41,205 bases of DNA from NCBI GenBank assembly GCA_964604245.1, contig CAZRYJ010000001.1, forward strand, positions 23,686 through 64,890, read 5' to 3'. Position numbers and translations under genes: made by a program. The notes under the pieces were generated by a model. It had not been told where the DNA came from. It made no database searches and saw nothing but the letters and a program-made list of their open reading frames with translations. Below are positions 1-40,742 of the stretch, piece by piece. The first letter of the stretch is position 1. Each line of letters starts with the position of its first letter. The DNA is from an uncultured bacterium (GTDB lineage Bacteria > Hydrothermota > UBA3072).

Positions 1-90
1 GCCTCTGCGGTTAATTAGATACCGGGTTTCAGGTTTTAGTAAAAACAATAAATATTTTCGTGTATTTTGTAGTTAAAAATACAAATTTAA

Positions 91-183
91 GGGGTGTAGT
101 GGTGTTTCGTGTTTTTTGTGTGTTTAGTGGTTAATATCAGGGTTGTGGGTGTGGCTTTGCGCTCTCCGCGCCTCTGCGGTTAA
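91..183 (-). repeat. two tandem 44-nt three-word intergenic modules (minus orientation: G-rich tail, three words, GGTTAA head)
   Basis: 91-134 ggggtgtagtggtgtttcgtgttttttgtgtgtttagtggttaa; 140-183 gggttgtgggtgtggctttgcgctctccgcgcctctgcggttaa. The same dimer layout (tail-tgata-head) recurs on the other strand at about 8761-8827. Confidence 0.8.
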
Positions 184-3048: not shown

Positions 3049-4425
3049 TTATTGATCCCCCTTTCCTTTTGATTTCGGTCTTGCCGCAAGAATCGTTTTT
3101 TCAACATCCTTTGCTTTAACCCAGACAAAATAAGTCATACCCGTATCATCAGTTTCATAATATGGACCTTCAGAAAAAGACTCTTCGACAAGTTCCTTAT
3201 AATTGTTAATAAAATTAACCTCCATAACTAACTGGGTCCTATTTTCATCCTGAGCTTCAGAGGTTAATCTATAACCATTAGCTGAAATCTCTAAATAAGG
3301 ATCGCTCAATAGATCATTTTTTATTTCTTTCATTGCTTCTTCTTCTTTAAACAATTCATAAAGATTACCCTGTGGAATAATATCTTTCTCATCCTCGTAA
3401 AGTTTAACCATAGAAACAAGATTCAAAAGAGAAGAATAACCGTTGAGAACTCTATTATTATTTAAAACATCAAATCTCTCCGAATAAAAAGAATTGAAAA
3501 GATTTACCGCTAAAGGGATTTTCTTCTTAAAAGTAACAATATCGCCAAGAAAATCGATTTTTCTGCCTCCATTCACATAGGAAACCATTTTATCGTCAAA
3601 TTCTTTTAGATCATTTATTAAAATTACATCCTTTTTCGAATCAAGTACATTGATAATCTTTTTAACTTGTTCATGAATACTTTCTGAATACAAAGGAATC
3701 GTATCCGTTTCATCTACCGATTCGGGTATATCCTTGCTTTGAACTGCCAAAAGCGGATTTTCCAATTTCTTCTCGATATGCCCAAACAGAAACCGAACAA
3801 CATCTTCTTCTATCAGATCACTTCTTCTCAAACTATCCCTTATCAAAAGACTATTTTGGATTCCTGAAATCATATAAGCAAGTTCTTCATTTTCCTGTAC
3901 CATCAAACTTATAACCCTGTCTTTTTCCTTTTCTATATTAATTCCGGAAATATAACGCAAAAGGCTATTTAATTCTGGTTCAATATTTCTATAATCATAT
4001 TCTCTCGCTTCTTTAATTTCATAAGCGGCAAAAGTTAATGCGGAATCAATCGGATAAAGATATTCAGATATCTTGATTTGCAGGGAACTATCCGCAGTAA
4101 ATAAATCTTTCTTTAATTCCTTAACTATACCCTCACATTGAGTAATTTTGGTTTTTGCTCTCATTACAGACATTTTCCTTCTTGTTATCCACTCGGGATC
4201 AGGATTTATTTCTTTCCTGAAATAAGGTTCTAAAACCCTTTCCCATTCGACTTCCAAAGGATATTGTCCGTTCTTTATCATATATTTTTCCAGCGCATTT
4301 CTTATTTCTTTGAGTCCCTTCTCAGCCTTCAATCGATGCGCCCTGCCGGCAAAGATAGCTTCTCCACCACAGGAGATAAAAACCAAAACACAGGATAATA
4401 CTATTAAAACCAGCGATTTCCTCAT
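3049..4425 (-). CDS. hypothetical secreted protein or lipoprotein
   Basis: I start it at ATG 4425 (MRKSLVLIVLSCVLVFISCGG, signal peptide with a Cys). The ORF-track start at 4518 reads through the tRNA gene and is an artefact. No family recognised. Confidence 0.6.
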   Translation of the reverse strand: MRKSLVLIVLSCVLVFISCGGEAIFAGRAHRLKAEKGLKEIRNALEKYMIKNGQYPLEVEWERVLEPYFRKEINPDPEWITRRKMSVMRAKTKITQCEGIVKELKKDLFTADSSLQIKISEYLYPIDSALTFAAYEIKEAREYDYRNIEPELNSLLRYISGINIEKEKDRVISLMVQENEELAYMISGIQNSLLIRDSLRRSDLIEEDVVRFLFGHIEKKLENPLLAVQSKDIPESVDETDTIPLYSESIHEQVKKIINVLDSKKDVILINDLKEFDDKMVSYVNGGRKIDFLGDIVTFKKKIPLAVNLFNSFYSERFDVLNNNRVLNGYSSLLNLVSMVKLYEDEKDIIPQGNLYELFKEEEAMKEIKNDLLSDPYLEISANGYRLTSEAQDENRTQLVMEVNFINNYKELVEESFSEGPYYETDDTGMTYFVWVKAKDVEKTILAARPKSKGKGDQ

Positions 4426-4451
4426 AAAAAATAACCCTCCATTCAAACCTT

Positions 4452-4524
4452 TGGAGCCGACGGGACTTGAACCCGTGCCCTTCTGACTGCCAGTCAGACG
4501 CGCTACCAACTGCGCCACGGCCCC
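4452..4524 (-). tRNA. tRNA-Ala (anticodon GGC)
   Basis: Minus-strand sequence GGGGCCGTGGCGCAGTTGGTAGCGCGTCTGACTGGCAGTCAGAAGGGCACGGGTTCAAGTCCCGTCGGCTCCA folds into a 73-nt cloverleaf: 7-bp acceptor, GCGC D-stem, TCTGA/TCAGA anticodon stem, loop CTGGCAG, TTCAAGT T-loop. It has the G3:U70 alanine identity pair. CCA is not encoded. Confidence 0.93.
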
Positions 4525-4585: not shown

Positions 4586-4675
4586 TAACCACAAAGAACA
4601 CAAAACCCACACCACATCCCTTTTTATTTAATTGTACCGCAAAGACACAGAGTGCACAGAGCCACACCTCACTCC
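4586..4675 (+). repeat. two three-word modules (plus orientation)
   Basis: 4586-4620 taaccacaaagaacacaaaacccacaccacatccc; 4635-4675 taccgcaaagacacagagtgcacagagccacacctcactcc. Confidence 0.75.
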
Positions 4676-4759
4676 ACTTTCTCTATTGTATTTTAATTAA
4701 ACAACCTCAAAATCCGAAAAACCGATTTAACCACAGAGAGCACCATGCCCTGCCTGTTC

Positions 4760-4955
4760 CGAGAAGATTAACTATCTTTCCCATATGAAGTGTACTTGTA
4801 ACAATAAGAATATCCCTGATATCAGCAAAAATCAATTGTTTAATAGGATTGTAAATCACAGACTCTTTGCCAACCGGTAAAAAATGTTTATTTGTAACTT
4901 TTGTTAAAGGATACAGCCTGTCCCCTTTTCCTCCTGCGAGTATTACACCTTTTAT
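4760..4955 (-). pseudogene. N-terminal remnant of a sugar-phosphate nucleotidyltransferase (RmlA/GalU-like)
   Basis: Minus-strand translation reads (I)KGVILAGGKGDRLYPLTKVTNKHFLPVGKESVIYNPIKQLIFADIRDILIVTSTLHMGKIVNLLGTG. GxLAGGxGxRLxPLT is the nucleotidyltransferase signature. ATA occupies the position of the expected ATG. Homology stops after about 65 codons where repeat-module sequence begins. Confidence 0.6.
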
Positions 4956-5207: not shown

Positions 5208-7301
5208 ATGTTTAATAAATATAAAAATCGAATAAAGAGTTCTCTTGTATTAGTATGGGGTACTGTTGTTGTTATTTACTTTTTCAGACGTTTCCCAATC
5301 ATTCACCTCTCTGAAGTCATCTTAAATGTGTTTGCTCTTTTTATACTACTATTATTTTTTACAGCTTTAGGTAGATATATATTAAAAAAATTCCGGTTCA
5401 AATGGAATTCATTCGTTGAAGAATGTTGTTTCTCTTTCGGTATCGGTTCCGGAATTTTCATTTTGTTAATTATCGGTCTTGCTTTTCTGAAATTGCTTTT
5501 CGAAATTATAATCGTTTCGCTTTTCCTAATACTTTTTATTTTAGTTTACAAAGATGCCAAATATCTTGCTATTACAGGATATAATCAACTTTTAAAATTC
5601 CTTTCAAGTAAAAAGTCTTCTCACGAGAAAGTTTTTATTGGCTTTATCTTTGTTGGTATTATTCTAACTCTTCTAACAACTCTAACGCCCCCTTTCTTTT
5701 ACGATGCATTATCATATCATCTGGCAGTTCCGCAGAAGTATCTTGTTAACCATGGTTTTTCCTTTCTTCCTCTTAATTATTTCTCGAATTTTCCCGCGAA
5801 TCTCGGCATGTTATTTGTTTTAGCTTTCAGTCTTTCAGGTGATTTGTTAGCTAAGTTGATTTCCTGGGCATATGCTCCTCTTACCACTCTGGCGGTTTAT
5901 TCTTTTACTAAATCTCTTTGGGGAAATCGAGTCGGAATACTCTCTGCGGCTATATTTATATTTGTACCCGGAATAATGATTCTTTCCACTTTAACTTCAA
6001 TAGACCTCGCGGTTACATTTTATTCTTTTATGAGCCTGTATTCGCTGCTTTACTGGTGTAAATCTCCTCAAAAAAGATGGTTTATATTTTCAGGAATATT
6101 TTGCGGTCTTGCAATGGGAACAAAATACACTGCAATCTTAGTTACCTGGTTAACCCTTGAAACGATTTTGCTTGTTCACTTATATTTCATTAAAAAGAAA
6201 TCGTTTATTAATGGATTAAAATATTGTATTTGTTTCGGCTTAATTGCCCTCCTCTGTTTTTCTCCCTGGTTAATAAAAAATATTATCTATACTAATAATC
6301 CTTTGTATCCTTTTTCGCATTCTTTGTTGAAATCAGACAGTTCAAAAATCAATAATTATAGCCACGTAATGCGGCGAATAGGCAATCCTGTCCATTCCTG
6401 GTTTTATGCATACAAAAATAACGATAGGTCTTTGTCGGAAGGAATTAAATTAATCCTAAGTAGTCCCTGGAAGGTTACAATGACTATGAATGGAGCTGCT
6501 GGAAAAACAGGGATAATTTTCTTCTTAGGATTACCATTCATATTTCTTCTCAAGAAAATACCGCTCATCATTCGTTACTTATTGTTTTTTTCGATATGTG
6601 TTTTTCTTTTATGGATATTATTATTACCATGGATTTTACGTTTTGCCTTCCCGATGTTCCCTCCACTAAGTATTATCCTCGCCTATGTCTTTTGTCAATT
6701 ATCGGAATATTCTAATAGAAAAAAATGGATCGCTGCCGGCATTGGCATTGTTTTAATATACCACTTGTTTTTATTTTTTTCTGAAATGGTTTCAGTTTTA
6801 CGCCCTTTTCCTTATTTATTCGGAAATCAATCAAAAGAGGAATTTCTGGTATCACATGGCGTCAATTACTACCCGGTAATCCAATGGGCAAACAATACAA
6901 TCCCAACTAACTCCAAGATTTTATTTGTTGGCGAGTTGCGAGGTTACTATTGCAGGAGAGACTATCTCTTACATGTTGGAATACAGGGCGTCGATGAGGA
7001 AAAACTGATATTGCGTAACTTTATTAAAAAAGCCAACAGCGTTGATGAAATACTGCAGAATTTAAATAGCTTAGAGATTACTCATATTTTAATTAACTTT
7101 TCCGAAATGTCTCGACTTGCCAAAAATTATCTTTCTTTAAATTCATATTTTGATTTCCCCGATAAGGAAAAAAGTGAACTGGTTGAAGAATTTTTTTCAG
7201 ATTATTTACACCCTTTAGCTTCAAAATATAACGTCACACTTTACAAAATAAACTATCCCGAAGACATCTTGAAACAGAAACCACAAGATTCCACAGATTA
7301 A
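5208..7301 (+). CDS. polytopic membrane glycosyltransferase, GT-C fold (ArnT/PMT-like)
   Basis: 697 aa with more than 12 hydrophobic helices followed by a soluble C-terminal domain. Early loop motif PPFFYDALSYH resembles the acidic first-loop motif of GT-C enzymes. The last codons and the TAA stop lie inside a repeat module. Confidence 0.5.
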   Translation: MFNKYKNRIKSSLVLVWGTVVVIYFFRRFPIIHLSEVILNVFALFILLLFFTALGRYILKKFRFKWNSFVEECCFSFGIGSGIFILLIIGLAFLKLLFEIIIVSLFLILFILVYKDAKYLAITGYNQLLKFLSSKKSSHEKVFIGFIFVGIILTLLTTLTPPFFYDALSYHLAVPQKYLVNHGFSFLPLNYFSNFPANLGMLFVLAFSLSGDLLAKLISWAYAPLTTLAVYSFTKSLWGNRVGILSAAIFIFVPGIMILSTLTSIDLAVTFYSFMSLYSLLYWCKSPQKRWFIFSGIFCGLAMGTKYTAILVTWLTLETILLVHLYFIKKKSFINGLKYCICFGLIALLCFSPWLIKNIIYTNNPLYPFSHSLLKSDSSKINNYSHVMRRIGNPVHSWFYAYKNNDRSLSEGIKLILSSPWKVTMTMNGAAGKTGIIFFLGLPFIFLLKKIPLIIRYLLFFSICVFLLWILLLPWILRFAFPMFPPLSIILAYVFCQLSEYSNRKKWIAAGIGIVLIYHLFLFFSEMVSVLRPFPYLFGNQSKEEFLVSHGVNYYPVIQWANNTIPTNSKILFVGELRGYYCRRDYLLHVGIQGVDEEKLILRNFIKKANSVDEILQNLNSLEITHILINFSEMSRLAKNYLSLNSYFDFPDKEKSELVEEFFSDYLHPLASKYNVTLYKINYPEDILKQKPQDSTD

Positions 7302-7367
7302 CACAAGATTACCCCACCACTCCCCAAATTAATATCACCGCAGAGACGCAGAGCCCCACCACACCCC
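7279..7367 (+). repeat. two three-word modules overlapping the 3' end of the GT-C gene
   Basis: 7279-7325 aaccacaagattccacagattaacacaagattaccccaccactcccc; 7329-7367 ttaatatcaccgcagagacgcagagccccaccacacccc. Confidence 0.8.
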
Positions 7368-7574
7368 AGATAGTAACCACAAGATTTCACCCTGGTACAG
7401 TCGTGTTAATCTGCAGCTATTATTCGGGGTAGAGGGGTTAAAGACAATAAAAAACTCTACGTTCTCTGTGGCTATTATTTAGGGTATAGGATATAGGGTT
7501 TAGGGTATAGAAAAAAACAAAAGAAAAAAACAAAAACTCTGTGGGGCGTGTGTTGACTGGGAATACTATAATCA

Positions 7575-8786: not shown

Positions 8787-8938
8787 TTAACCACGAAACA
8801 CACGAAAAACACGAAACCCAACCCCCCGGAATGGGACGCAGATGCACGCAGATTTTCAGGATTTGAATCCCCCTTCCACCCCAGATTAATTAGCCACAGA
8901 TTTGTACTGATAGACACGGATACCCTTCCCACCACCCC
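8787..8938 (+). repeat. three consecutive three-word modules
   Basis: 8787-8827 ttaaccacgaaacacacgaaaaacacgaaacccaacccccc; 8833-8882 gggacgcagatgcacgcagattttcaggatttgaatcccccttccacccc; 8886-8938 ttaattagccacagatttgtactgatagacacggatacccttcccaccacccc. The middle and last units recur at 20885-20950. Confidence 0.8.
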
Positions 8939-9009
8939 ATTTTTTATTATTGGTAAGTCAAAAAAAAATTGAAATCCGTGTAGATACGCCTGCCCTGCCT
9001 GTCCCGCTT

Positions 9010-9043
9010 GCCCCGTAAGGAAGAATAACCGTATCGGGGTGTC
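9010..9043 (-). repeat. 34-nt element, left copy of an inverted pair (partner at 10901-10934)
   Basis: The reverse complement of 9010-9043 is gacaccccgatacggttattcttccttacggggc. 10901-10934 reads gacaccccgatacggtcattcttccctacggggc (32/34 identical). Confidence 0.8.
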
Positions 9044-9085
9044 CTCTGTGTTAAAAAATGTTGGGTTTGTGGGGAAAACCCGGCG

Positions 9086-9113
9086 TTGACAATTTGAAGA
9101 AAAAAACTATAAT
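9086..9113 (+). promoter_or_regulatory. near-consensus sigma70 promoter of the four-helix-bundle gene
   Basis: TTGACA 9086-9091, a 16-nt spacer, TATAAT 9108-9113. Followed by hairpin gcggcaaagccgc (9123-9135) in a 47-nt leader. Confidence 0.6.
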
Positions 9114-9160
9114 AACCCTAGCGCGGCAAAGCCGCTAAAATGTAAAAATTAAATATCAAA

Positions 9161-9532
9161 ATGGAAAATGATAAATCAAAGTTCAAAAATGAATTCAAAA
9201 AAAGGCTATACAACTTTGTCCTGAAGCTTATTGAATTTTTAGATGTCTTACCTAAAGATAATGTTTCTAAAAGACTTGGAGATCAATTGCTTCGCAGTGG
9301 TACAAGTATCTTAGGTAATTACGTTGAAGGTCAATCTGCAAGCAGTAAGAAAGATTTTACCAATTATTTCAATTATTCTCTTAAGTCTACTAATGAAAGT
9401 AAGCTATGGATTAATCTTCTTAAGGATAGCAAAAGAGCTACACAAGAACAAGTTAACTGGTTTTTAGAGGAATTGGATGAAATAAGCAAGATTTTCGCTT
9501 CAAGTATTCTTATCCTGAAGGGCAAAAGATGA
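9161..9532 (+). CDS. four-helix-bundle protein (23S rRNA intervening-sequence protein family; same family as DGR Avd)
   Basis: 123 aa. Family-typical pattern ...LPKDNVSKRLGDQLLRSGTSILGNYVEGQSASSKKDFTNYFNYSLKSTNESKLWINLL. Confidence 0.8.
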   Translation: MENDKSKFKNEFKKRLYNFVLKLIEFLDVLPKDNVSKRLGDQLLRSGTSILGNYVEGQSASSKKDFTNYFNYSLKSTNESKLWINLLKDSKRATQEQVNWFLEELDEISKIFASSILILKGKR

Positions 9533-9660
9533 TTTTACATTTTTATTTGTCATTTTGCTTTTTAAATTTTGATATTTTATTTATCAGAAAAAGGCGGTGG
9601 AATTAAATGGGATATTTTTTTGCAAAAAAACAAAAAGTTGACTGACAGTACCACAGGTTT

Positions 9661-10884: not shown

Positions 10885-10900
10885 AAGAATATGCTGCAAA

Positions 10901-10934
10901 GACACCCCGATACGGTCATTCTTCCCTACGGGGC
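10901..10934 (+). repeat. 34-nt element, right copy of the inverted pair bracketing the 4HB gene and dapL
   Basis: See 9010-9043. A weaker relative is at about 20958-20990 (ggtacgatcgttcctccctacagggcaggc). Confidence 0.8.
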
Positions 10935-10961
10935 AGGCAGAGAACACGAAGCCGCACCACA

Positions 10962-11072
10962 CCCCAAAAGATTTAGACAGGATTTACAAGATTAACAGGA
11001 TAAGGTGTTTATTTAAAGCCCATCCCAACCCCAAAAGATTTAGACAGGATTTACAAGATTAACAGGATAAGG
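10962..11072 (+). repeat. 44-bp direct repeat (two copies) forming the left flank of GxxExxY copy 1
   Basis: ccccaaaagatttagacaggatttacaagattaacaggataagg occurs at 10962-11005 and 11029-11072. A third copy is at 23038-23080. Confidence 0.85.
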
Positions 11073-11092
11073 ATATAAATAAGATAAAATAA

Positions 11093-11470
11093 ATGAAATA
11101 CGAAAAGCTTACTGAAAAAATAATCGGTTGCGCTTATCAAGTTTACAATAAAATGGGGTTTGGCTTTTTGGAATCGGTTTATGAAAAATGCTTGATGATT
11201 GAGTTGAAGAAAACGGGACTCAAAGCTGAATCACAACATCCTATTGTAGTTCATTATGAAGATACAGTTGTAGGAGAGTTTGCAGCTGATATCATTGTTG
11301 AAGATTCGATTATACTGGAAATAAAAGCTGTAAGACATATAGCCAAGGCACATGAAGTTCAATTAGTCAACTATCTAAATGCAACCCAAAAGGATATAGG
11401 GTTGATTATCAATTTTGGAGAAAAAGAAGTCGAAATAAAGAGAAAAATTCGAAAATTGCCAGAAAAATAA
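11093..11470 (+). CDS. GxxExxY protein (PD-(D/E)XK nuclease-fold family), copy 1, apparently intact
   Basis: 125 aa. GFGFLESVYEKCL contains the GxxExxY motif; ADIIVEDSIILEIKA contains D...E-x-K core residues. TAA immediately precedes the ATG (aaaataaATGaa). Confidence 0.8.
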   Translation: MKYEKLTEKIIGCAYQVYNKMGFGFLESVYEKCLMIELKKTGLKAESQHPIVVHYEDTVVGEFAADIIVEDSIILEIKAVRHIAKAHEVQLVNYLNATQKDIGLIINFGEKEVEIKRKIRKLPEK

Positions 11471-11517
11471 TTTCATTTGGTCACTCAAATAACAAATAAT
11501 TTTTTTTATCTTTATTT

Positions 11518-11735
11518 CCTGTTATCCTGTCTATCTTTTTTTTATAACATATATTATTTCTTTATCCTGTCCATCCTGTTATCCTTTTTATGTTTTTTTA
11601 CAACAAAACTATTTTTTTTATCCTGTTGATCCTGTCTAAGTTTCTTTTAAATAAATTGTATCTTTATCTAGTCTACCCTGTTATCCTGTCTATCTTTTTT
11701 TTATAACATATATTATTTCTTTATCCTGTCCATCC
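11518..11735 (+). repeat. 59-bp direct repeat (two copies, 159 bp apart) in the right flank of GxxExxY copy 1
   Basis: cctgttatcctgtctatcttttttttataacatatattatttctttatcctgtccatcc occurs at 11518-11576 and 11677-11735. Its atcctgt words are the inverse of the left-flank acaggat words. Confidence 0.85.
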
Positions 11736-11896
11736 GTGCAAATCCGTGGCAAATTAGAACAAAAAATAAATTGGGTGTGGTGGGGCAATCTTGTGCTAAT
11801 CTCGTGTAATCTCGTGGTTCAAAACTGAAATCCTCACTTCCATCAGTATAGATAGAAATGAGGACCTCAGAGAAATGCAAGAAAGGAAGGAAAATC

Positions 11897-20821: not shown

Positions 20822-21239
20822 AAATTAAATATCAAAATTCAAAAAGCAAAATGACAAATAAAAATACAAAAACTAAAAATGATAGGACGCAGATGAACAC
20901 AGATTTTCAGGATTTGCCCCACTCCACTCCAGATTAATTAGCCACTGATTTTCAGCCTGGTACGATCGTTCCTCCCTACAGGGCAGGCTGATAGGCACTG
21001 ATCCCCCCACCTAACCCATATTTTAAACTAAAAAAATATCTTATATCTGTATACATCTCTGTCAATCTATAGTTAATTTAGGTGTTGTGGGTTGAGGAAA
21101 ACAAAAAAAAATCCTGTTAATCTTTTTTTTATCCTGTCAAAATATTGGGGATCTGGGTTGGGATTTAAACAAAAAAAATCTTGTAAATCTACGTTCATCT
21201 GCGTCCAATTTTCGGTGGTAGTGGGTGCGGCTTTGCCGC
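20822..21239. repeat. gene-less composite of repeat modules, a 4HB-flank relic and a solo GxxExxY-type terminal repeat
   Basis: 20822-20872 resembles the reverse complement of the 3' flank of the 4HB gene (9538-9590). 20885-20950 matches 8833-8903. 21108-21166 (atcctgttaatc...atcctgtcaaaatattggggatctgggttgggattt) matches the GxxExxY right-end repeat. 21190-21207 is an inverted copy of 20885-20905. Hairpin gcggctttgccgc at 21227-21239. Confidence 0.7.
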
Positions 21240-22928: not shown

Positions 22929-23005
22929 ATTAGCCACTAAGCCACGAAGGCACAAAGAAAAAAAACTAATATATTTTAACCACGAAACACACTAAAGACA
23001 CGAAA
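22929..23005 (+). repeat. two three-word modules directly after the membrane-protein stop codon
   Basis: 22929-22957 attagccactaagccacgaaggcacaaag (AAG-type words, like 40288-40320). 22976-23005 ttaaccacgaaacacactaaagacacgaaa. Confidence 0.75.
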
Positions 23006-23024
23006 TTTTTTTGCTTTACTAAAT

Positions 23025-23080
23025 CCCAACCCCAAAACCCCAAATATTTAGACAGGATTTACAAGATTAACAGGATAAGG
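23025..23080 (+). repeat. left terminal inverted repeat of GxxExxY copy 2
   Basis: cccaaccccaaaaccccaaatatttagacaggatttacaagattaacaggataagg. Its reverse complement aligns with 23461-23507. Confidence 0.75.
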
Positions 23081-23100: not shown

Positions 23101-23361
23101 ATGAAATACGAAAAACTTACTGAAAAAATAATTGGTTGCGCTTATCAAGTTTATAATAAAATGGGGTTTGGATTTCTGGAATCGGTCTATGAAAAATGTC
23201 TAATGCTCGAATTGAACAAAACAGGGCTCAAAGCTAAAGCACATGAAGTTAAATTAGTCAACTATTTGAATGCAACTCAAAAGGATATAGGGTTGATTAT
23301 CGATTTTGGAGAAAAAGAAGTTGAAATAAAAAGAAAATTTCGAAAATTGCCAGAAAGTTAA
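23101..23361 (+). pseudogene. GxxExxY protein copy 2 with an in-frame 39-codon internal deletion (catalytic core missing)
   Basis: 86 aa and about 90 percent identical to copy 1 on both sides of the gap. ...KTGLKA|KAHEVKLVNYL... lacks ESQHPIVVHYEDTVVGEFAADIIVEDSIILEIKAVRHIA. The reading frame is retained. Confidence 0.7.
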
Positions 23362-23460
23362 TTTGTTGGGTTTTTTAAATAACAAATAATATTTTTTTAT
23401 CCTGTCCATCCTGTTATCCTGTCCAAATATTTCGGGGTTGTGTTGGGTTTTAAAAAACAA

Positions 23461-23507
23461 AAAATCCTGTAAATCCTGTTGATCCTGTCAAATATTTGGG
23501 AATTGGG
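23461..23507 (-). repeat. right terminal inverted repeat of GxxExxY copy 2 (a second partial copy at about 23396-23450)
   Basis: aaaatcctgtaaatcctgttgatcctgtcaaatatttgggaattggg is the inverse of the left end (atcctgtc-aaatatttggg / cccaaatattt-gacaggat). Confidence 0.75.
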
Positions 23508-23575
23508 CTGGTAGTGTTTTAATAAACCATCCAATCAAAAATCTTGTGTTAATCTAGTGTAATCTTGTGGTTATT

Positions 23576-25921: not shown

Positions 25922-25936
25922 ATTAACCTCCTAAAA

Positions 25937-26044
25937 TTAACCACAGATTACACAGATTAACACAAGATTACCACACACAACTACCCCATTTAATTTTTTT
26001 TTAACCACTAAACACACGAAAAACACTAAACCCCACAACACACC
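25937..26044 (+). repeat. two archetypal three-word modules
   Basis: 25937-25987 ttaaccacagattacacagattaacacaagattaccacacacaactacccc. 26001-26044 ttaaccactaaacacacgaaaaacactaaaccccacaacacacc, which closely matches the reverse complement of 91-134. Confidence 0.85.
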
Positions 26045-26202
26045 ATTTTTATCATGTTTTTAAAACTAGCCCCCCATACCCAAAAATTAGAAACAACGAA
26101 TTGCACGAATAGCACAAATAAAGTTTTTTGTTTCTTTTTCTGAATCCTAAATCCTAATTTTTTCATTTTGCTTTTTAATATTTAATTTTTAAACTTCTTA
26201 TG

Positions 26203-27072: not shown

Positions 27073-27173
27073 TTATCAACAAAAAAAACTTCTCACACGG
27101 AGACACAGAGAACACAGAGTTTTTCATTTTGTTTTTTACTAAATCCTAAATCCAATTTTTTTCATTTCCTATG

Positions 27174-28385
27174 CTATGTTTTAAGTTTTTTCTTTTTAAC
27201 GGCAGGAAGGAGTAAATTATTCAATATTATCCGATAACCCGGCGAATTTTTGCGAAACTCCAGATAAGTGGGTGGATCTCCCACAAGATGTGTGTAATCT
27301 TCAGGATCATGTCCTCCAAGGAAGGAAAAACTACCCTTATCACATTCTCCATATATATATCTGACTTCTTTTGTATTTGGGATACCTCCCAGAATAATAA
27401 TATCAACTTTCAATTTTTCCCTATCAAAACCGGTATCCTGACCTAAAAATTCTTTTATTCTTACAGTATGATTCTGGGTTAAAATAGCAGGAATAATATC
27501 TCTTTTTGCCATAAAAGTACGGAGAAAAAAATAGCTATTTTTTCCTCTTCGCTGCGCAAGGTAGGTTATATCAACATCCGAATGCTCGTAAATATTCAAA
27601 GATGTTATAAGGCGTATATTCTTTAAAAAAAGTGTATTATTATAATCCGCTTTTATATTTGACTTAGAATCGATTCCATCGCCATCGATTTGTGAAGGAA
27701 CGATATCCACACCATAGTAACAAAGGGCAATATCCAGAGTAATCGGAGCGGAACACATGGCAAAAAGAAATCCGCCTTTGGAAACATAGTCCTTTATTAC
27801 CTTGGCAACATCATGTTTCATTTTCCAGACTTTAGAATAACCCAGGCTTCGCGCCTTCCTTTCGTTAATGTTGACAACTTCCCTGTACCAGGCAGCATTC
27901 GCATAATGACTATAAAATTTCCCGTACTGTCCGGTAAAATCCTCGTGATGAAGATGCAGCCAGTCATAATTGATGAGGGCACCTTTAAGAATATCATCAT
28001 CCCATATTCTTTCATACGGAACTCTGGCGTATTCGAGAGCAAGAGCAACCGCATCATCCCAGGGACCTTCTGTTTCGGGTATATACACCGCAACTTTGGG
28101 GGCTTTTTCCAACTTTACCCTTTCCATATTTTCTCTCTCAATGATCGCATAGATATCGTTTACCTGATCTTCATTTACCCAAAATGAAGCTACTCCCCTT
28201 TTATCTGCTTCTTTTTTTATTCCCTCAAGCCCAGGAAGAAGGAAACTGCCACCTCTGTAATTAAGAAACCACTCGGCATTAAGCCCCTCGTTTAAAACCC
28301 AGTACGTAAGACCGTAAGCTTTTAAATGATCTGTCTGCGCTCCATCCATCGGAACAAGTAAACTCGCAATAATTATAAAAAACAT
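27174..28385 (-). CDS. conserved secreted hypothetical protein; function unknown
   Basis: 403 aa from ATG 28385 (MFFIIIASLLVPMDGAQTDHLKAYGLTYWVLNEG...). The ORF-track start at 28562 reads through repeat modules. I vaguely recognise the DHLKAYG...NYRGGSF N-terminus from FCB-group proteins of unknown role but cannot verify it. Confidence 0.5.
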   Translation of the reverse strand: MFFIIIASLLVPMDGAQTDHLKAYGLTYWVLNEGLNAEWFLNYRGGSFLLPGLEGIKKEADKRGVASFWVNEDQVNDIYAIIERENMERVKLEKAPKVAVYIPETEGPWDDAVALALEYARVPYERIWDDDILKGALINYDWLHLHHEDFTGQYGKFYSHYANAAWYREVVNINERKARSLGYSKVWKMKHDVAKVIKDYVSKGGFLFAMCSAPITLDIALCYYGVDIVPSQIDGDGIDSKSNIKADYNNTLFLKNIRLITSLNIYEHSDVDITYLAQRRGKNSYFFLRTFMAKRDIIPAILTQNHTVRIKEFLGQDTGFDREKLKVDIIILGGIPNTKEVRYIYGECDKGSFSFLGGHDPEDYTHLVGDPPTYLEFRKNSPGYRIILNNLLLPAVKKKKLKT

Positions 28386-28460
28386 TTGTAAAAAAGTACC
28401 TATGTTAAACAATAAGTCAAGTGCAAAACGCGGCAAAACACCAACAACCCCCCAAACAGA

Positions 28461-28568
28461 AACCACAAGATTGCACAAGATTACCACAAGATTTCTTATT
28501 TGTTTAAAATACTTTCCACAACCCCAAAAAACAATTTTACCGCAGAGAACACAGAGCCACACTACACC
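28461..28568 (+). repeat. three-word modules upstream of the secreted-protein gene
   Basis: 28461-28494 aaccacaagattgcacaagattaccacaagattt; 28537-28568 ttaccgcagagaacacagagccacactacacc. Confidence 0.75.
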
Positions 28569-28682
28569 TTATTTTTATTTTATTTATTTAAGACCCTACT
28601 CACAACCCCTAAATTAGCCACAGATTAACATGGATACAAAAAAATTCTAAAAAATTCTAAAAATTAAAAACAATAAAAAAAC

Positions 28683-28728
28683 GGGGTAGTAGGGTAATCT
28701 GGTGTTAATCTGTGTAATCTGTGGTTAA
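28683..28728 (-). repeat. three-word module, inverted near-identical partner of 25937-25987
   Basis: ggggtagtagggtaatctggtgttaatctgtgtaatctgtggttaa. The reverse complement ttaaccacagattacacagattaacaccagattacc matches 25937-25972 at 35/36 positions. Confidence 0.85.
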
Positions 28729-28733
28729 TTAAA

Positions 28734-39696: not shown

Positions 39697-40323
39697 ATGA
39701 AAAAAATCCAGTTGCAAACACCCTTATCAGCAAAAGACGTAAAAAATTTATCTGTGGGAGATACTGTTTTTTTAAGCGGTAAACTTTTCACCGCAAGGGA
39801 CGAGACACACAAGAAAATGCTTGAACTAAAAAGAAAGGGCAAAAAAACACCCTTCAACCCCAACGAAATGGCTTTATTCCACTGTGGTCCCGTTGTTAGG
39901 AAAGAAAAAAACGAATGGGTAATAATATCCGCAGGACCTACAACTTCAATTAGAATGGAAAACTTTGAAAGTGAATTCTTATCAACGTTCGGAGTACGGA
40001 TGATAATCGGTAAAGGCGGAATGGGAGAACAGACCTTAAAAGCCCTAAAAAAAACAGGGGCTGTATATACACATCTAACCGGTGGAACGGGTGCACTCGG
40101 GGCAAAAGCTGTAAAGAAAGTAGAAAACGTTTACTTTCTTGAAGAACTCGGAATACCGGAAGCTGCCTGGATACTTACCGTAGAGAATTTTGGCCCTCTC
40201 ATAGTAACAATGGATGCAAAGGGAAACAGTTTTTATGCCCACTTAGAAAAGGAAAGAAGAAAAAATCTTGAAAAAATCAATAAAGAAATTAGCCACAAAG
40301 ACACGAAGACACAAAGAAAATAA
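39697..40323 (+). CDS. class I fumarate hydratase / tartrate dehydratase, beta subunit
   Basis: 208 aa. LSGKLFTARDETHKKM and IGKGGMG motifs. The last 11 codons (ISHKDTKTQRK) and the stop are encoded by repeat module 40288-40320. Confidence 0.8.
   Translation: MKKIQLQTPLSAKDVKNLSVGDTVFLSGKLFTARDETHKKMLELKRKGKKTPFNPNEMALFHCGPVVRKEKNEWVIISAGPTTSIRMENFESEFLSTFGVRMIIGKGGMGEQTLKALKKTGAVYTHLTGGTGALGAKAVKKVENVYFLEELGIPEAAWILTVENFGPLIVTMDAKGNSFYAHLEKERRKNLEKINKEISHKDTKTQRK
40288..40320 (+). repeat. AAG-word module, left inverted flank of GxxExxY copy 3
   Basis: attagccacaaagacacgaagacacaaagaaaa. The inverse partner is at 40718-40742. Confidence 0.75.
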
Positions 40324-40716
40324 ATGAACTTTAAACCATTATCTAAGAAAGAAGAAGAAATAGCAAAAAAAATCGTAGATTCTGCATATACGGTTCATAA
40401 AGAATTAGGTGCAGGTTTACTTGAAAAAGTATACGAAACATGCTTTTGCCACGAATTATCTAAACGGGGAATTGAATTCAAAAGACAAATTCCGATTCCA
40501 ATAATCTATGACGGGGTCAAATTCGATGAAGGATTACGTTTGGATGTTCTCATAGAAGACAAAATTATATGTGAATTAAAAGCACTCGACCAAATGAATC
40601 CCGTATGGGAAGCTCAAATATTAAGTTATTTAAAATTAACTAACAAACGCTTGGGGTTTCTCATAAATTTTAATGTACCATTAATAAAAAAAGGTATAAA
40701 AAGATATGTTTTATAA
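40324..40716 (+). CDS. GxxExxY protein (PD-(D/E)XK fold), copy 3, divergent from copies 1 and 2
   Basis: 130 aa. GAGLLEKVYETCF contains the GxxExxY motif; RLDVLIEDKIICELKA contains D...E-x-K. The ATG directly follows the fumarase beta stop codon (aaaataaATGaa, the same junction as copies 1 and 2). Confidence 0.8.
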   Translation: MNFKPLSKKEEEIAKKIVDSAYTVHKELGAGLLEKVYETCFCHELSKRGIEFKRQIPIPIIYDGVKFDEGLRLDVLIEDKIICELKALDQMNPVWEAQILSYLKLTNKRLGFLINFNVPLIKKGIKRYVL

Positions 40717-40717
40717 T

Positions 40718-40742
40718 CTTAGTGCCTTGGTGCCTTCGTGGC
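40718..40742 (-). repeat. AAG-word module, right inverted flank of GxxExxY copy 3
   Basis: cttagtgccttggtgccttcgtggc. The reverse complement gccacgaaggcaccaaggcactaag has the same ccac-xAAG-xcac-xAAG-xcac-xAAG pattern as 40288-40320. Confidence 0.75.

Follow-up and report, generated by a model that had tools for sequence, protein, structure and literature searches.

The locus analyzed here raises the question of what the short repeated modules are that occupy most intergenic gaps of a bacterial genome and that combine a shared head with tandem words whose suffix changes from unit to unit. The two focal modules lie on the plus strand: an AGATT unit (25937–25987; head TTAACCAC, words CACAGATTA, CACAGATTAA, and CACAAGATTA, and a C-rich tail), which shows no fold, and a GAAA unit (26001–26044; head, three 9-nt words, and a C-rich tail). 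Both are solo arms. They reside in a 41.2-kb stretch of DNA with approximately 35–40% GC, the whole of which is referred to here as the window. The window encodes housekeeping functions (BamA-like protein, pilins, DapL, MlaDE, XerC, and fumarase), one tRNA-Ala, and small genes on the plus strand, namely one four-helix-bundle (4HB) gene (9161–9532) and three GxxExxY genes designated as copies A (11093–11470), B (23101–23361, truncated to 86 residues), and C (40324–40716). Because the homologs of its XerC with 76–80% identity bear the name candidate division WOR-3, the window was assigned to this lineage. We consider the modules to be, probably, terminal inverted repeat (TIR)-like arms of minimal selfish cassettes, together with solo derivatives and derivatives resembling miniature inverted-repeat transposable elements (MITEs). 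The key to this finding is the link to GxxExxY and 4HB genes, which an earlier note on this DNA had suggested and which proved correct: the modules are arms that bracket those genes.

The modules stand out statistically. All 19 units listed in the earlier note were recovered at the same coordinates and on the same strands, and a de novo scan (a 7-mer repeated three times in tandem with at most one mismatch and a period of 8–11) detected 19–20 triple-word arrays in the intergenic DNA (approximately 5.4 kb), whereas 50 second-order Markov shuffles yielded 0.46 on average and 2 at most. The coding DNA (35.8 kb) contained 11 arrays, two of which were modules at gene ends. The head TTARCCRC occurred 18 times against 4.0 expected, a count reached in 0 of 100 shuffles. 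Approximately 47 modules were catalogued in total; they make up 41% of the intergenic bases, and of the 18 intergenic gaps with a length of 60 nt or more, 13–14 contain them.

The common architecture that had been claimed holds in outline and is looser in detail: the full head was present in 9 of the 19 listed units, three words in about 15, and the C-rich tail in 13. Units lacking the full head carried AACCAC, TACCGC, GCCAC, or the distinct head GGGACGC, and units 7329 and 28537 consist of two words each, the modal copy number per array being three. The claim of a uniform period of about 10 nt, equal to a helical turn, was not borne out; the period is tight but specific to the word type, i.e., 9 nt for GAAA (370 of 390 spacings), 8–9 nt for AAG, 9 nt for CAGGAT, mostly 10 nt for CAGAT/CGGAT, and 9–11 nt for AGATT. 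Further types had escaped the note, namely ACAGGAT arrays around two of the GxxExxY genes, CGAAT, AATCCTA, and TAGGGTA words, and the A/T-rich heptamer arms that flank the 4HB gene. The central observation of the note, that the suffix changes in concert within one architecture, was upheld. The suffix changes together within a unit because each subfamily has its own word, and since the same head carries other suffix classes in other genomes, this rule holds across phyla.

GxxExxY genes are tightly bracketed by inverted word arrays both in the window and at approximately 90 other loci, and the gene fills the loop between the inverted arms. Copy C lies between AAG-type arms: the left arm (40288–40323, plus strand) overlaps the end of the fumarase gene, including its last codons and stop codon, and reaches as far as the ATG of copy C, and the right arm (40717–40742, minus strand) begins directly after the stop codon. 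Copies A and B lie between CAGGAT-type arms. Every complete GxxExxY gene examined was bracketed, including the three in the window, the complete ones among the eight in the genome loci, and four from look-ups. Among 61 metagenome cassettes, at least two inverted 7-mers were shared between the flanks (100 nt on each side) in 75%, versus 32% upon random pairing; the related loci had been found by a search seeded with a 4-sequence alignment. In these cassettes, the median distance was 19 nt from arm to ATG and 7 nt from the stop codon to the arm. The ATG is often supplied by the last word (...GAT+G), and on the other side the first word of the right arm frequently adjoins the stop codon. An unbiased search from the opposite direction, starting from inverted array pairs, showed that loops of 370–500 nt nearly always contain a GxxExxY open reading frame (ORF) that fills the loop.

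The bracketed protein is predicted to be a small PD-(D/E)XK nuclease on the basis of its motif and core fold. The window copies scored 147.3, 146.6, and 77.9 bits against TIGR04256 (cut-off, 35) and 142 bits against 22 in Pfam (PF13366). Residues D66, E76, and K78 are invariant, and an AlphaFold2 model (predicted local distance difference test score, 92) has a PD-(D/E)XK core, whose best Foldseek matches were Cas4 SSO0001 (E = 9e-5) and lambda exonuclease. A sequence search of solved structures gave no significant match. PADLOC returned only weak Cas4 similarity and PHROGs no phage family, and searches of the cargo genes against Pfam, NCBIfam, PHROGs, and PADLOC detected no recognized transposase, the only matches being PDDEXK_3/GxxExxY and the weak similarity to Cas4. 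PF13366/TIGR04256 is a very large family, with about 8000 matches among 8000 scored 90%-identity clusters per search and a total of at least 8000. A superfamily survey noted multiple transfers of PF13366 and listed its function as unknown (PMC3424549).

Protein subclade and word type are inherited together, across phyla and in unrelated genomic contexts. Similarity of flanking k-mers correlated with protein identity (Mantel r = 0.21, reached in 0 of 500 permutations), and protein clusters corresponded to word classes with an adjusted mutual information of 0.22 (0 of 2000 permutations). Qualitatively, the EESYxIxGACFEVY clade pairs with AACCACGAAA, the IIGCAYxVYN..GFGFLESVYEKC clade with GACAGGAT, the IIKIFYKVYN clade with GGAC[GA]CAGAT, and the VIGAAMTVHS clade with GACAGAAT. 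The clade of copy C was examined separately: its proteins from WOR-3, Ignavibacteriales, Cloacimonetes, and Desulfobacterales are 75–89% identical, and AAG-type inverted arms were found at four cassettes of this clade in unrelated gene contexts, as well as at L110 and L083. All members examined have AAG arms, including one from a metagenome-assembled genome (MAG) with 60% GC. From this match between clade and word, we infer that the encoded nuclease would read the words.

The cassettes are co-directional with the genes around them, inside host transcription units. The GxxExxY gene had the same orientation as its upstream neighbor at 51 of 59 loci (p = 9e-9) and as its downstream neighbor at 45 of 58. 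A second type of cassette carries the 4HB gene (TIGR02436/PF05635) and, in the window, lies between the DapL promoter and the DapL ATG (9084–9660). In the strain variant L202, the DapL promoter (TTGACA-16-TATAAT) is located directly before the DapL ATG (1527–1570), whereas in the window the identical 32-nt promoter (9084–9115) is followed by a 4HB cassette of approximately 540 nt and only then by DapL. The left end of this cassette (9116–9160, plus strand) consists of the hairpin GCGGCAAAGCCGC and A-rich heptamer words reaching the ATG, and the right end (9533–9577, plus strand) contains the left-end words in inverted form (TTTTACA, TTTGTCA, and TTTTGAT). The co-directionality of the genes and the position of the 4HB cassette in the DapL leader suggest that the cassettes rely on host read-through transcription. 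The pilin region adjoining the DapL promoter is 86% identical between the window and L202. Comparison of the window with a contig of another sample (L001; 99.5% identity) yields 35 differences, and 26 of them are clustered in 177 bases at 9361–9537 (the 3′ half of the 4HB gene), which suggests gene conversion between 4HB paralogs or a mosaic assembly. Only two 4HB genes beyond that of the window were present in the fetched loci, one of them with direct instead of inverted flanking words; therefore, the evidence for the generality of 4HB cassette arms comes from the WOR-3 loci only.

To assess the distribution, a single exact GAAA pattern of 24 specified bases, TTAACCACNAAACACACNAAANACAC, which the focal GAAA unit shares, was searched for in one representative of each GTDB species. 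The pattern was found at no fewer than 118 loci, i.e., at least that number, in genomes with GC fractions of 0.33–0.69, belonging to Verrucomicrobiota/Opitutaceae, Kiritimatiellae, Victivallales, Gemmataceae/Planctomycetaceae, Acidobacteriota, Chloroflexota, Desulfobacterota, Fibrobacteraceae, Cloacimonadota, and WOR-3. In these genomes, the same head also carries the suffixes AAG, AGAG, GGAT, TAAT, and GAAT. An inverted partner was present downstream of 46 of the 125 GAAA arms, with loops of either 12–191 nt or approximately 390–406 nt, and upstream of 12 more; the remainder were solo. Hairpins with unlike arms (GAAA on the left and CACGGAA on the right) were observed in L083 and L088 of Verrucomicrobiota/Opitutaceae. 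The GAAA arm pattern also occurred in 12 stretches of predicted viral contigs (IMG/VR, L224–L235), with four copies on one contig. GxxExxY genes were detected in 8 of 72,556 plasmid records, and plasmids are therefore not an obvious main vector. Flanking words also accompany annotated GxxExxY genes of cultivated organisms: on pTS1 of Treponema saccharophilum (L237), an annotated GxxExxY gene is flanked by a single inverted CACGGAT word, and on the Fusobacteria plasmid pZRK30-1 (L236), the arrays flanking the GxxExxY gene have the same orientation on both sides.

The gene-less forms appear to derive from gene-bearing cassettes, as judged from the sequences of their loops. The 102-nt loop of the L008 hairpin contains 51 nt that are 96% identical to the stretch of the L108 cassette that separates its stop codon from its right arm, and the L025 loop contains 34 nt that are 91% identical to the 3′ end of the L045 ORF. 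Similarly, 4HB-type ends without the gene were found in L221 and L222, and solo 4HB-type arms occur in the window (20822–20872 and 26158–26194).

Unit content turns over between close relatives, as seen from four syntenic WOR-3 loci (L220–L223) whose XerC identities are 93, 88, 86, and 80%. The closest relative, L220 (93%), shares the focal units and has wholly different units in the gap at 28461–28733. L221 (88%) has 17 nt in place of the two focal units and their tails, and L223 (80%) has gaps of 0–8 nt at all four intergenic sites compared, the focal gap being 0 nt. The GxxExxY-B cassette is missing at its site in all four relatives. Given this turnover, the modules are lineage-specific insertions and not conserved host sites. 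Look-ups of identical proteins returned mostly the same population and revealed no variation at the focal gap.

Taken together, the cassette that we propose would consist of an arm, one small gene, and an inverted arm, with an overall length of approximately 0.45 kb. Each arm would comprise an outer head and then a tandem series of 8–10-nt words, two to four in number and usually three, and the gene would encode the predicted 125-residue GxxExxY/PF13366 PD-(D/E)XK nuclease or, in the parallel cassette type, a 4HB protein. Most modules in the window would be gene-less descendants, i.e., short-loop hairpins and, above all, orphaned solo arms. Each word may serve as the recognition site for one protomer of the nuclease, with the fixed word spacing phasing an oligomer along the arm; the nuclease could cut at or between the arms, and the cassette could spread by recombinational copying (homing-like) or by transposition, and expression would depend on read-through from host genes. 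The C-rich tail, placed inward of the words, would be an addition specific to WOR-3-like genomes. A departure from what mobile-element biology predicts, which the note had argued with regard to simple MITE decay, was not supported: the data fit terminal arms of tiny mobile cassettes and their gene-less derivatives. More tentatively, the word arrays and GxxExxY might constitute an unrecognized superfamily spanning multiple phyla, possibly the smallest autonomous mobile elements known in bacteria, in which each subclade reads its own 7-nt word three times in phase.

Several observations weigh against the cassette interpretation. The loci were chosen by arm pattern or by gene, and the frequencies are biased accordingly. 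Over half of the GAAA arms are solo, and just 8 GxxExxY genes were found in 837 kb around 125 arms. The TTAACC-headed AGATT and AGAG arms, the two commonest types of the window, were present in no gene-bearing cassette found. Neither a target-site duplication nor a defined insertion junction was seen in the loci compared; no duplication was visible at the junctions of the 4HB cassette or around the focal units relative to L221, and the junctions lie in A/T runs. Some genes have arrays of the same orientation, or complete hairpins, on each side; heterotypic hairpins exist; and the stacks of unlike arms aimed at GxxExxY-B misfit simple nesting. The correlation between clade and word could stem from co-inheritance of gene and arm alone, and the cassette model leaves the C-rich tails unexplained.

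An element acting at the RNA level would account for several of the same features. The inverted arms would form the stem of a transcript with the ORF in the loop, a double-strand-specific RNase would excise it as it does the intervening sequences of 23S rRNA, and the words would matter for pairing only. Relatives of the 4HB gene do occur inside rRNA intervening sequences (cf. the name of PF05635), the ORF fills the loop exactly with arms overlapping start and stop codons, the cassettes are co-directional with host genes, and the 4HB cassette sits within an mRNA leader. However, a stem requires neither the tandem three-word build nor the fixed period of each type, and the solo arms, which prevail among the modules of the window, have a predicted minimum free energy of 0 in RNA folding, a result that also tells against the RNA alternative raised in the note. 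In 44 GAAA hairpins, the word cores, which do not vary across phyla, were invariant, and the two arms agreed at the five variable positions with a frequency of 0.62, compared with 0.57 ± 0.017 for shuffled partners. A search of the window and 18 hairpin-bearing loci against Rfam 15 with gathering and E-value thresholds matched only tRNA. The scant covariation, the unfolded solo units, the lack of an Rfam match, the tight period, and the copy number of about three therefore favor sequence-specific recognition of each word over selection for pairing, and we regard the RNA-level element as unlikely. Phased binding of an oligomeric protein, which the note had proposed, remains the most plausible role for the words in view of their invariant cores across phyla, tight per-type period, and scant arm covariation, although with type-specific periods in place of the helical turn. 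It is improbable, too, that the word hairpins form an independent, older repeat family, host-beneficial or selfish, into which GxxExxY genes have homed, so that the modules would be targets and not ends. Empty hairpins and solo arms far outnumber genes, homing endonucleases with a PD-(D/E)XK fold are known, the loops of empty hairpins are mostly unlike one another, and gene fragments in loops would fit a cycle of invasion, decay, and loss. Against such invasion, word type tracks protein clade across phyla, which would require each gene lineage to stay tied to one hairpin type; invasion and the cassette model are nevertheless hard to tell apart by sequence data alone.

Host sites of a regulatory or structural kind, such as arrays for nucleoid proteins or transcription factors, C-rich Rho-loading sites, or terminators at gene boundaries, are a very improbable explanation. 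The modules do lie at gene boundaries, often just past stop codons or just upstream of −35 boxes, their tails are C-rich, G-free, and unstructured, and some units are kept at orthologous positions in Verrucomicrobiota. Yet the turnover described above, with near-empty gaps in L223, no focal units in L221, and different units at 28461–28733 in L220, is not what host sites would predict, the orientation relative to genes is mixed (approximately 16 co-directional versus 8 opposed, with the focal units antisense to both neighbors), and several unrelated word types would each require a host factor of their own. The reading of the tails as Rho-loading sites or terminators was rejected on the grounds of this mixed orientation and of the absence of units in relatives. 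Slippage microsatellites or chance low complexity in AT-rich intergenic DNA, finally, are hardly credible: short tandem periods are present and one arm region is tandemly amplified (11517–11735), but the number of arrays far exceeds the 0.46 expected, an identical 24-base pattern recurs at at least 118 loci in many phyla with 33–69% GC, and arrays have a fixed number of words, about three.

The C-rich, G-free tail is located on the inner side of the words and differs between copies with near-identical words. It is confined to low-GC WOR-3-like genomes, to which 10 of 11 tailed GAAA arms belong. We also considered whether C- or G-rich tails extend the stem and rejected this, given that they are not complementary to the tail of the opposite arm. 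A Chi-like role for the G-rich strand would be purely speculative. Likewise, the reverse-complemented head GGTTAA does not represent the Gly-stop end of a coding repeat, as the periods of 8–10 nt are not multiples of three.

Among known systems, the closest analog of the proposed cassettes would be REPIN/RAYT, i.e., inverted doublets of repetitive extragenic palindromic (REP) sequences and REP-associated tyrosine transposases. In REPIN/RAYT systems, the repeats are scattered as inverted doublets or singlets, copies of them flank the dedicated gene, and each gene subfamily is specific for its repeat (PMC3116915, PMC3337134); the REP unit is an imperfect palindrome of 20–40 nt, one end of which bears a GTAG or CGTC tag (PMC3733652). 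The modules resemble them in being dispersed extragenic repeats that occur as inverted hairpin doublets and singlets, with a small dedicated gene between inverted copies and gene subfamilies tied to their own repeat sequence. They differ in that the enzyme is a predicted 125-aa PD-(D/E)XK protein (PF13366/TIGR04256) instead of a Y1/HUH transposase; that the arm consists of three tandem 8–10-nt words with no palindrome, single units having a minimum free energy of 0; that the heads are TTAACCAC, GGGACGC, or TTGACAGG, with no GTAG/CGTC tag; and that the gene is multicopy, with near-identical copies across phyla, and often lies inside the hairpin loop.

The likeness to MITEs lies in terminal inverted repeats, in gene-less internal-deletion derivatives that outnumber coding copies, and in the fast turnover of insertions between close relatives; as in MITEs, non-coding inverted ends derived from a coding parent are present, in the form of the 46 of 125 GAAA arms with loops of 12–191 nt and cassette fragments. 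In contrast to MITEs and insertion sequences, no target-site duplication was seen here, the protein falls outside known transposase families, the whole autonomous unit would be only approximately 450 bp, and many copies are single arms. The intervening sequences of 23S rRNA (S23p/4HB, PF05635) likewise combine, within a host transcript, a long inverted repeat with a small ORF of this family in its loop. The elements found here, however, are intergenic or in mRNA leaders, have repeated-word arms, and show no compensatory covariation; the window contains no rRNA, only tRNA-Ala, and the cassettes lie between protein genes and not in a 23S helix. Free-standing homing endonuclease genes are also small selfish nuclease genes with a patchy distribution across phyla and decayed copies, but the cassettes have no intron or intein host, carry repeated-word arms on both sides, and are accompanied by very many gene-less arms. 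Homing would entail site-specific cleavage of an empty allele and copying of the gene into it; the observations here comprise the presence or absence of cassettes and decayed copies. The ends of Mu and Tn7 contain two to four similar short tandem sites per end, inverted between ends, whereas the sites here are 8–10 nt and abutting, the element is about 20 times smaller, and there is no DDE transposase. Cyanobacterial short tandemly repeated repetitive (STRR) heptamers and small dispersed repeats are likewise short tandem words located between the genes of repeat-rich genomes; an STRR array is a longer run of a single heptamer, without a head, a fixed copy number of three, or gene bracketing. 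Clustered regularly interspaced short palindromic repeats (CRISPRs) require 23–47-nt repeats and unique spacers of similar length, in place of the abutting 8–11-nt words at about three per array seen here, and origin iterons require 17–22-bp repeats by a rep gene or origin, while the 8–11-nt words are dispersed over at least 14 intergenic gaps and no rep gene is present in the window. The note had recognized no named repeat family in the modules, and this was supported: they have no Rfam match, are neither REP sequences or bacterial interspersed mosaic elements (BIMEs) nor CRISPRs, and are undescribed in the literature searched. Searches of the literature by sequence strings, family accessions, and family names found nothing that describes the repeats, and the cassettes are apparently undescribed.

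The remaining modules of the window illustrate how units are stacked and mixed. At the GxxExxY-B gene, the left stack (22929–23080, plus strand) comprises an AAG arm (22929–22957), a GAAA arm with spacer and tail (22976–23041), and the CAGGAT left arm (23042–23080), all three pointing at the gene. The right stack (23362–23574, minus strand) comprises the CAGGAT right arm (23362–23433), a CAGGAT unit (23434–23497), and an AGATT unit (23498–23574), which point at it from the opposite side, each with a spacer and a tail. A simple nested-insertion model for these stacks was rejected, as the left and right types do not pair. Upstream of GxxExxY-A, the region 10942–11083 (plus strand) consists of a single AAG word with tail (10942–10965), a CAGGAT unit with spacer and tail (10966–11032), and the left arm of the cassette (11033–11083), which is a duplicate of the CAGGAT unit; this left-arm region (10966–11083) is duplicated twice at a 67-nt period. 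On the other side, the right-arm CAGGAT arrays (11517–11735, minus strand) form a 57-nt tandem repeat of approximately four copies and are followed by a two-word CGGAT unit (11732–11757) and an AGATT unit with tail (11773–11819) in the minus-strand region 11732–11819.

Composite regions are equally common elsewhere. At the start of the window (1–183, minus strand), an AGAG unit cut by the window edge (1–14), a GAAA unit with tail (91–134), and an AGAG unit with tail (140–183) lie directly 3′ of the BamA-like gene, and this composite is 86% identical to L043. The region 4586–4743 (plus strand) contains a two-word AAAG unit with tail (4586–4620), an AGAG unit with tail (4635–4675), and an AGAG fragment (4727–4743). 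At 7279–7391 (plus strand), an AGATT unit with tail (7279–7325), which provides the final 7 codons and the stop of the gene at 5208–7301, is followed by a two-word AGAG unit with tail (7329–7367) and a single AGATT word (7373–7391); an AGAG unit with an A/T spacer and a C-rich tail lies on the minus strand at 7426–7474. The region 8787–8938 (plus strand) is a head-to-tail series of GAAA (8787–8827), CAGAT/CAGGAT (8833–8882), and mixed xGAT (8883–8938) units, each with a C-rich tail, and the entire region differs in the strain variant L202. At 20822–21017 (plus strand), the solo 4HB-type arm (20822–20872) is accompanied by a CAGAT unit with tail (20885–20930) and a mixed xGAT unit with tail (20931–21017), the last of which is split by a 40-nt hairpin insert.

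Downstream of the focal units, the region 26069–26194 (plus strand) contains a C-rich tract (26069–26081), CGAAT words (26092–26123), AATCCTA words (26140–26158), and the 4HB-type arm remnant (26158–26194); its CGAAT and 4HB-type parts are kept in L220–L222. A three-word CAGAG array (27092–27119) is followed by AATCC words and a 4HB-type arm remnant (27120–27169) in the plus-strand region 27092–27169. The region 28461–28637 (plus strand) contains a tail-less AGATT unit (28461–28494), a two-word AGAG unit with tail (28537–28568), and a C-rich tract with AGATT/GGAT words (28594–28637). It is followed on the minus strand by an AGATT unit with tail (28683–28728), whose head and words are near-identical to 25937–25970 and whose tail differs.

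Word repeats that lack the CAC form, i.e., TAGGGTA heptamers and AATCCTA/CTAAATC heptamers (7480–7510, 26140–26158, and 27139–27153), adjoin 4HB-type arm remnants in relatives. A second, unrelated small repeat family occurs at 8987–9045 (plus strand), 10897–10945 (minus strand), 20951–20995, 4745–4775, and 7385–7402; its hairpins are CCCCGATACGG...CCGTATCGGGG together with GGGCAGGC/CAGCCTG...CAGGCTG, and one copy lies within unit 20931–21017. The modules also distort gene calls: a 462-aa ORF (27174–28562) runs over the units at 28461–28568, while its orthologs have 403–420 aa, and the last codons and stops of the genes at 5208–7301 and 39697–40323 fall within units. Regarding neighboring genes, the start of the inositol monophosphatase gene (minus strand) is probably an ATT at about 25922–25924, 5 nt past AGGAGG, whereas a later TTG serves as the start in ORF lists; in L220, L221, and L222, the ATT/ATC codon is conserved together with the TTA GA. 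that comes after it. The longest ORF of a 489-aa protein (3049–4518) overlaps tRNA-Ala(GGC) (4452–4524) on the same strand, and its true start must therefore be further downstream.

The finding that the modules bracket GxxExxY genes provides PF13366/TIGR04256 with a genomic role and a testable partner DNA. In this WOR-3 genome, it accounts for approximately 40% of the DNA between genes, and it explains the conspicuous AT-rich hairpins of high-GC Verrucomicrobiota, Planctomycetota, and Acidobacteriota. In practical terms, the modules mislead gene callers by causing false N-terminal extensions and by supplying C-termini and stop codons to host genes, and they are sites of assembly breaks and strain variation. 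Interpreted as cassette arms, they would represent a second, mechanistically different pairing of a repeat with a dedicated enzyme, for which REPIN/RAYT has so far been the main example, and there is a substantial chance that the mobilizing mechanism is itself new. If the words are indeed recognized, the family would supply small nucleases that are sequence-specific and whose sites are simple and modular. Should the wider superfamily also exist, a lone 125-aa PD-(D/E)XK protein acting on triple-word arms would constitute a mobilizing chemistry without a counterpart among known transposases and homing enzymes, much of the intergenic DNA of WOR-3 and similar lineages would consist of gene-less arms, and the subclades would make up a natural library in which each small nuclease is matched to its DNA word.

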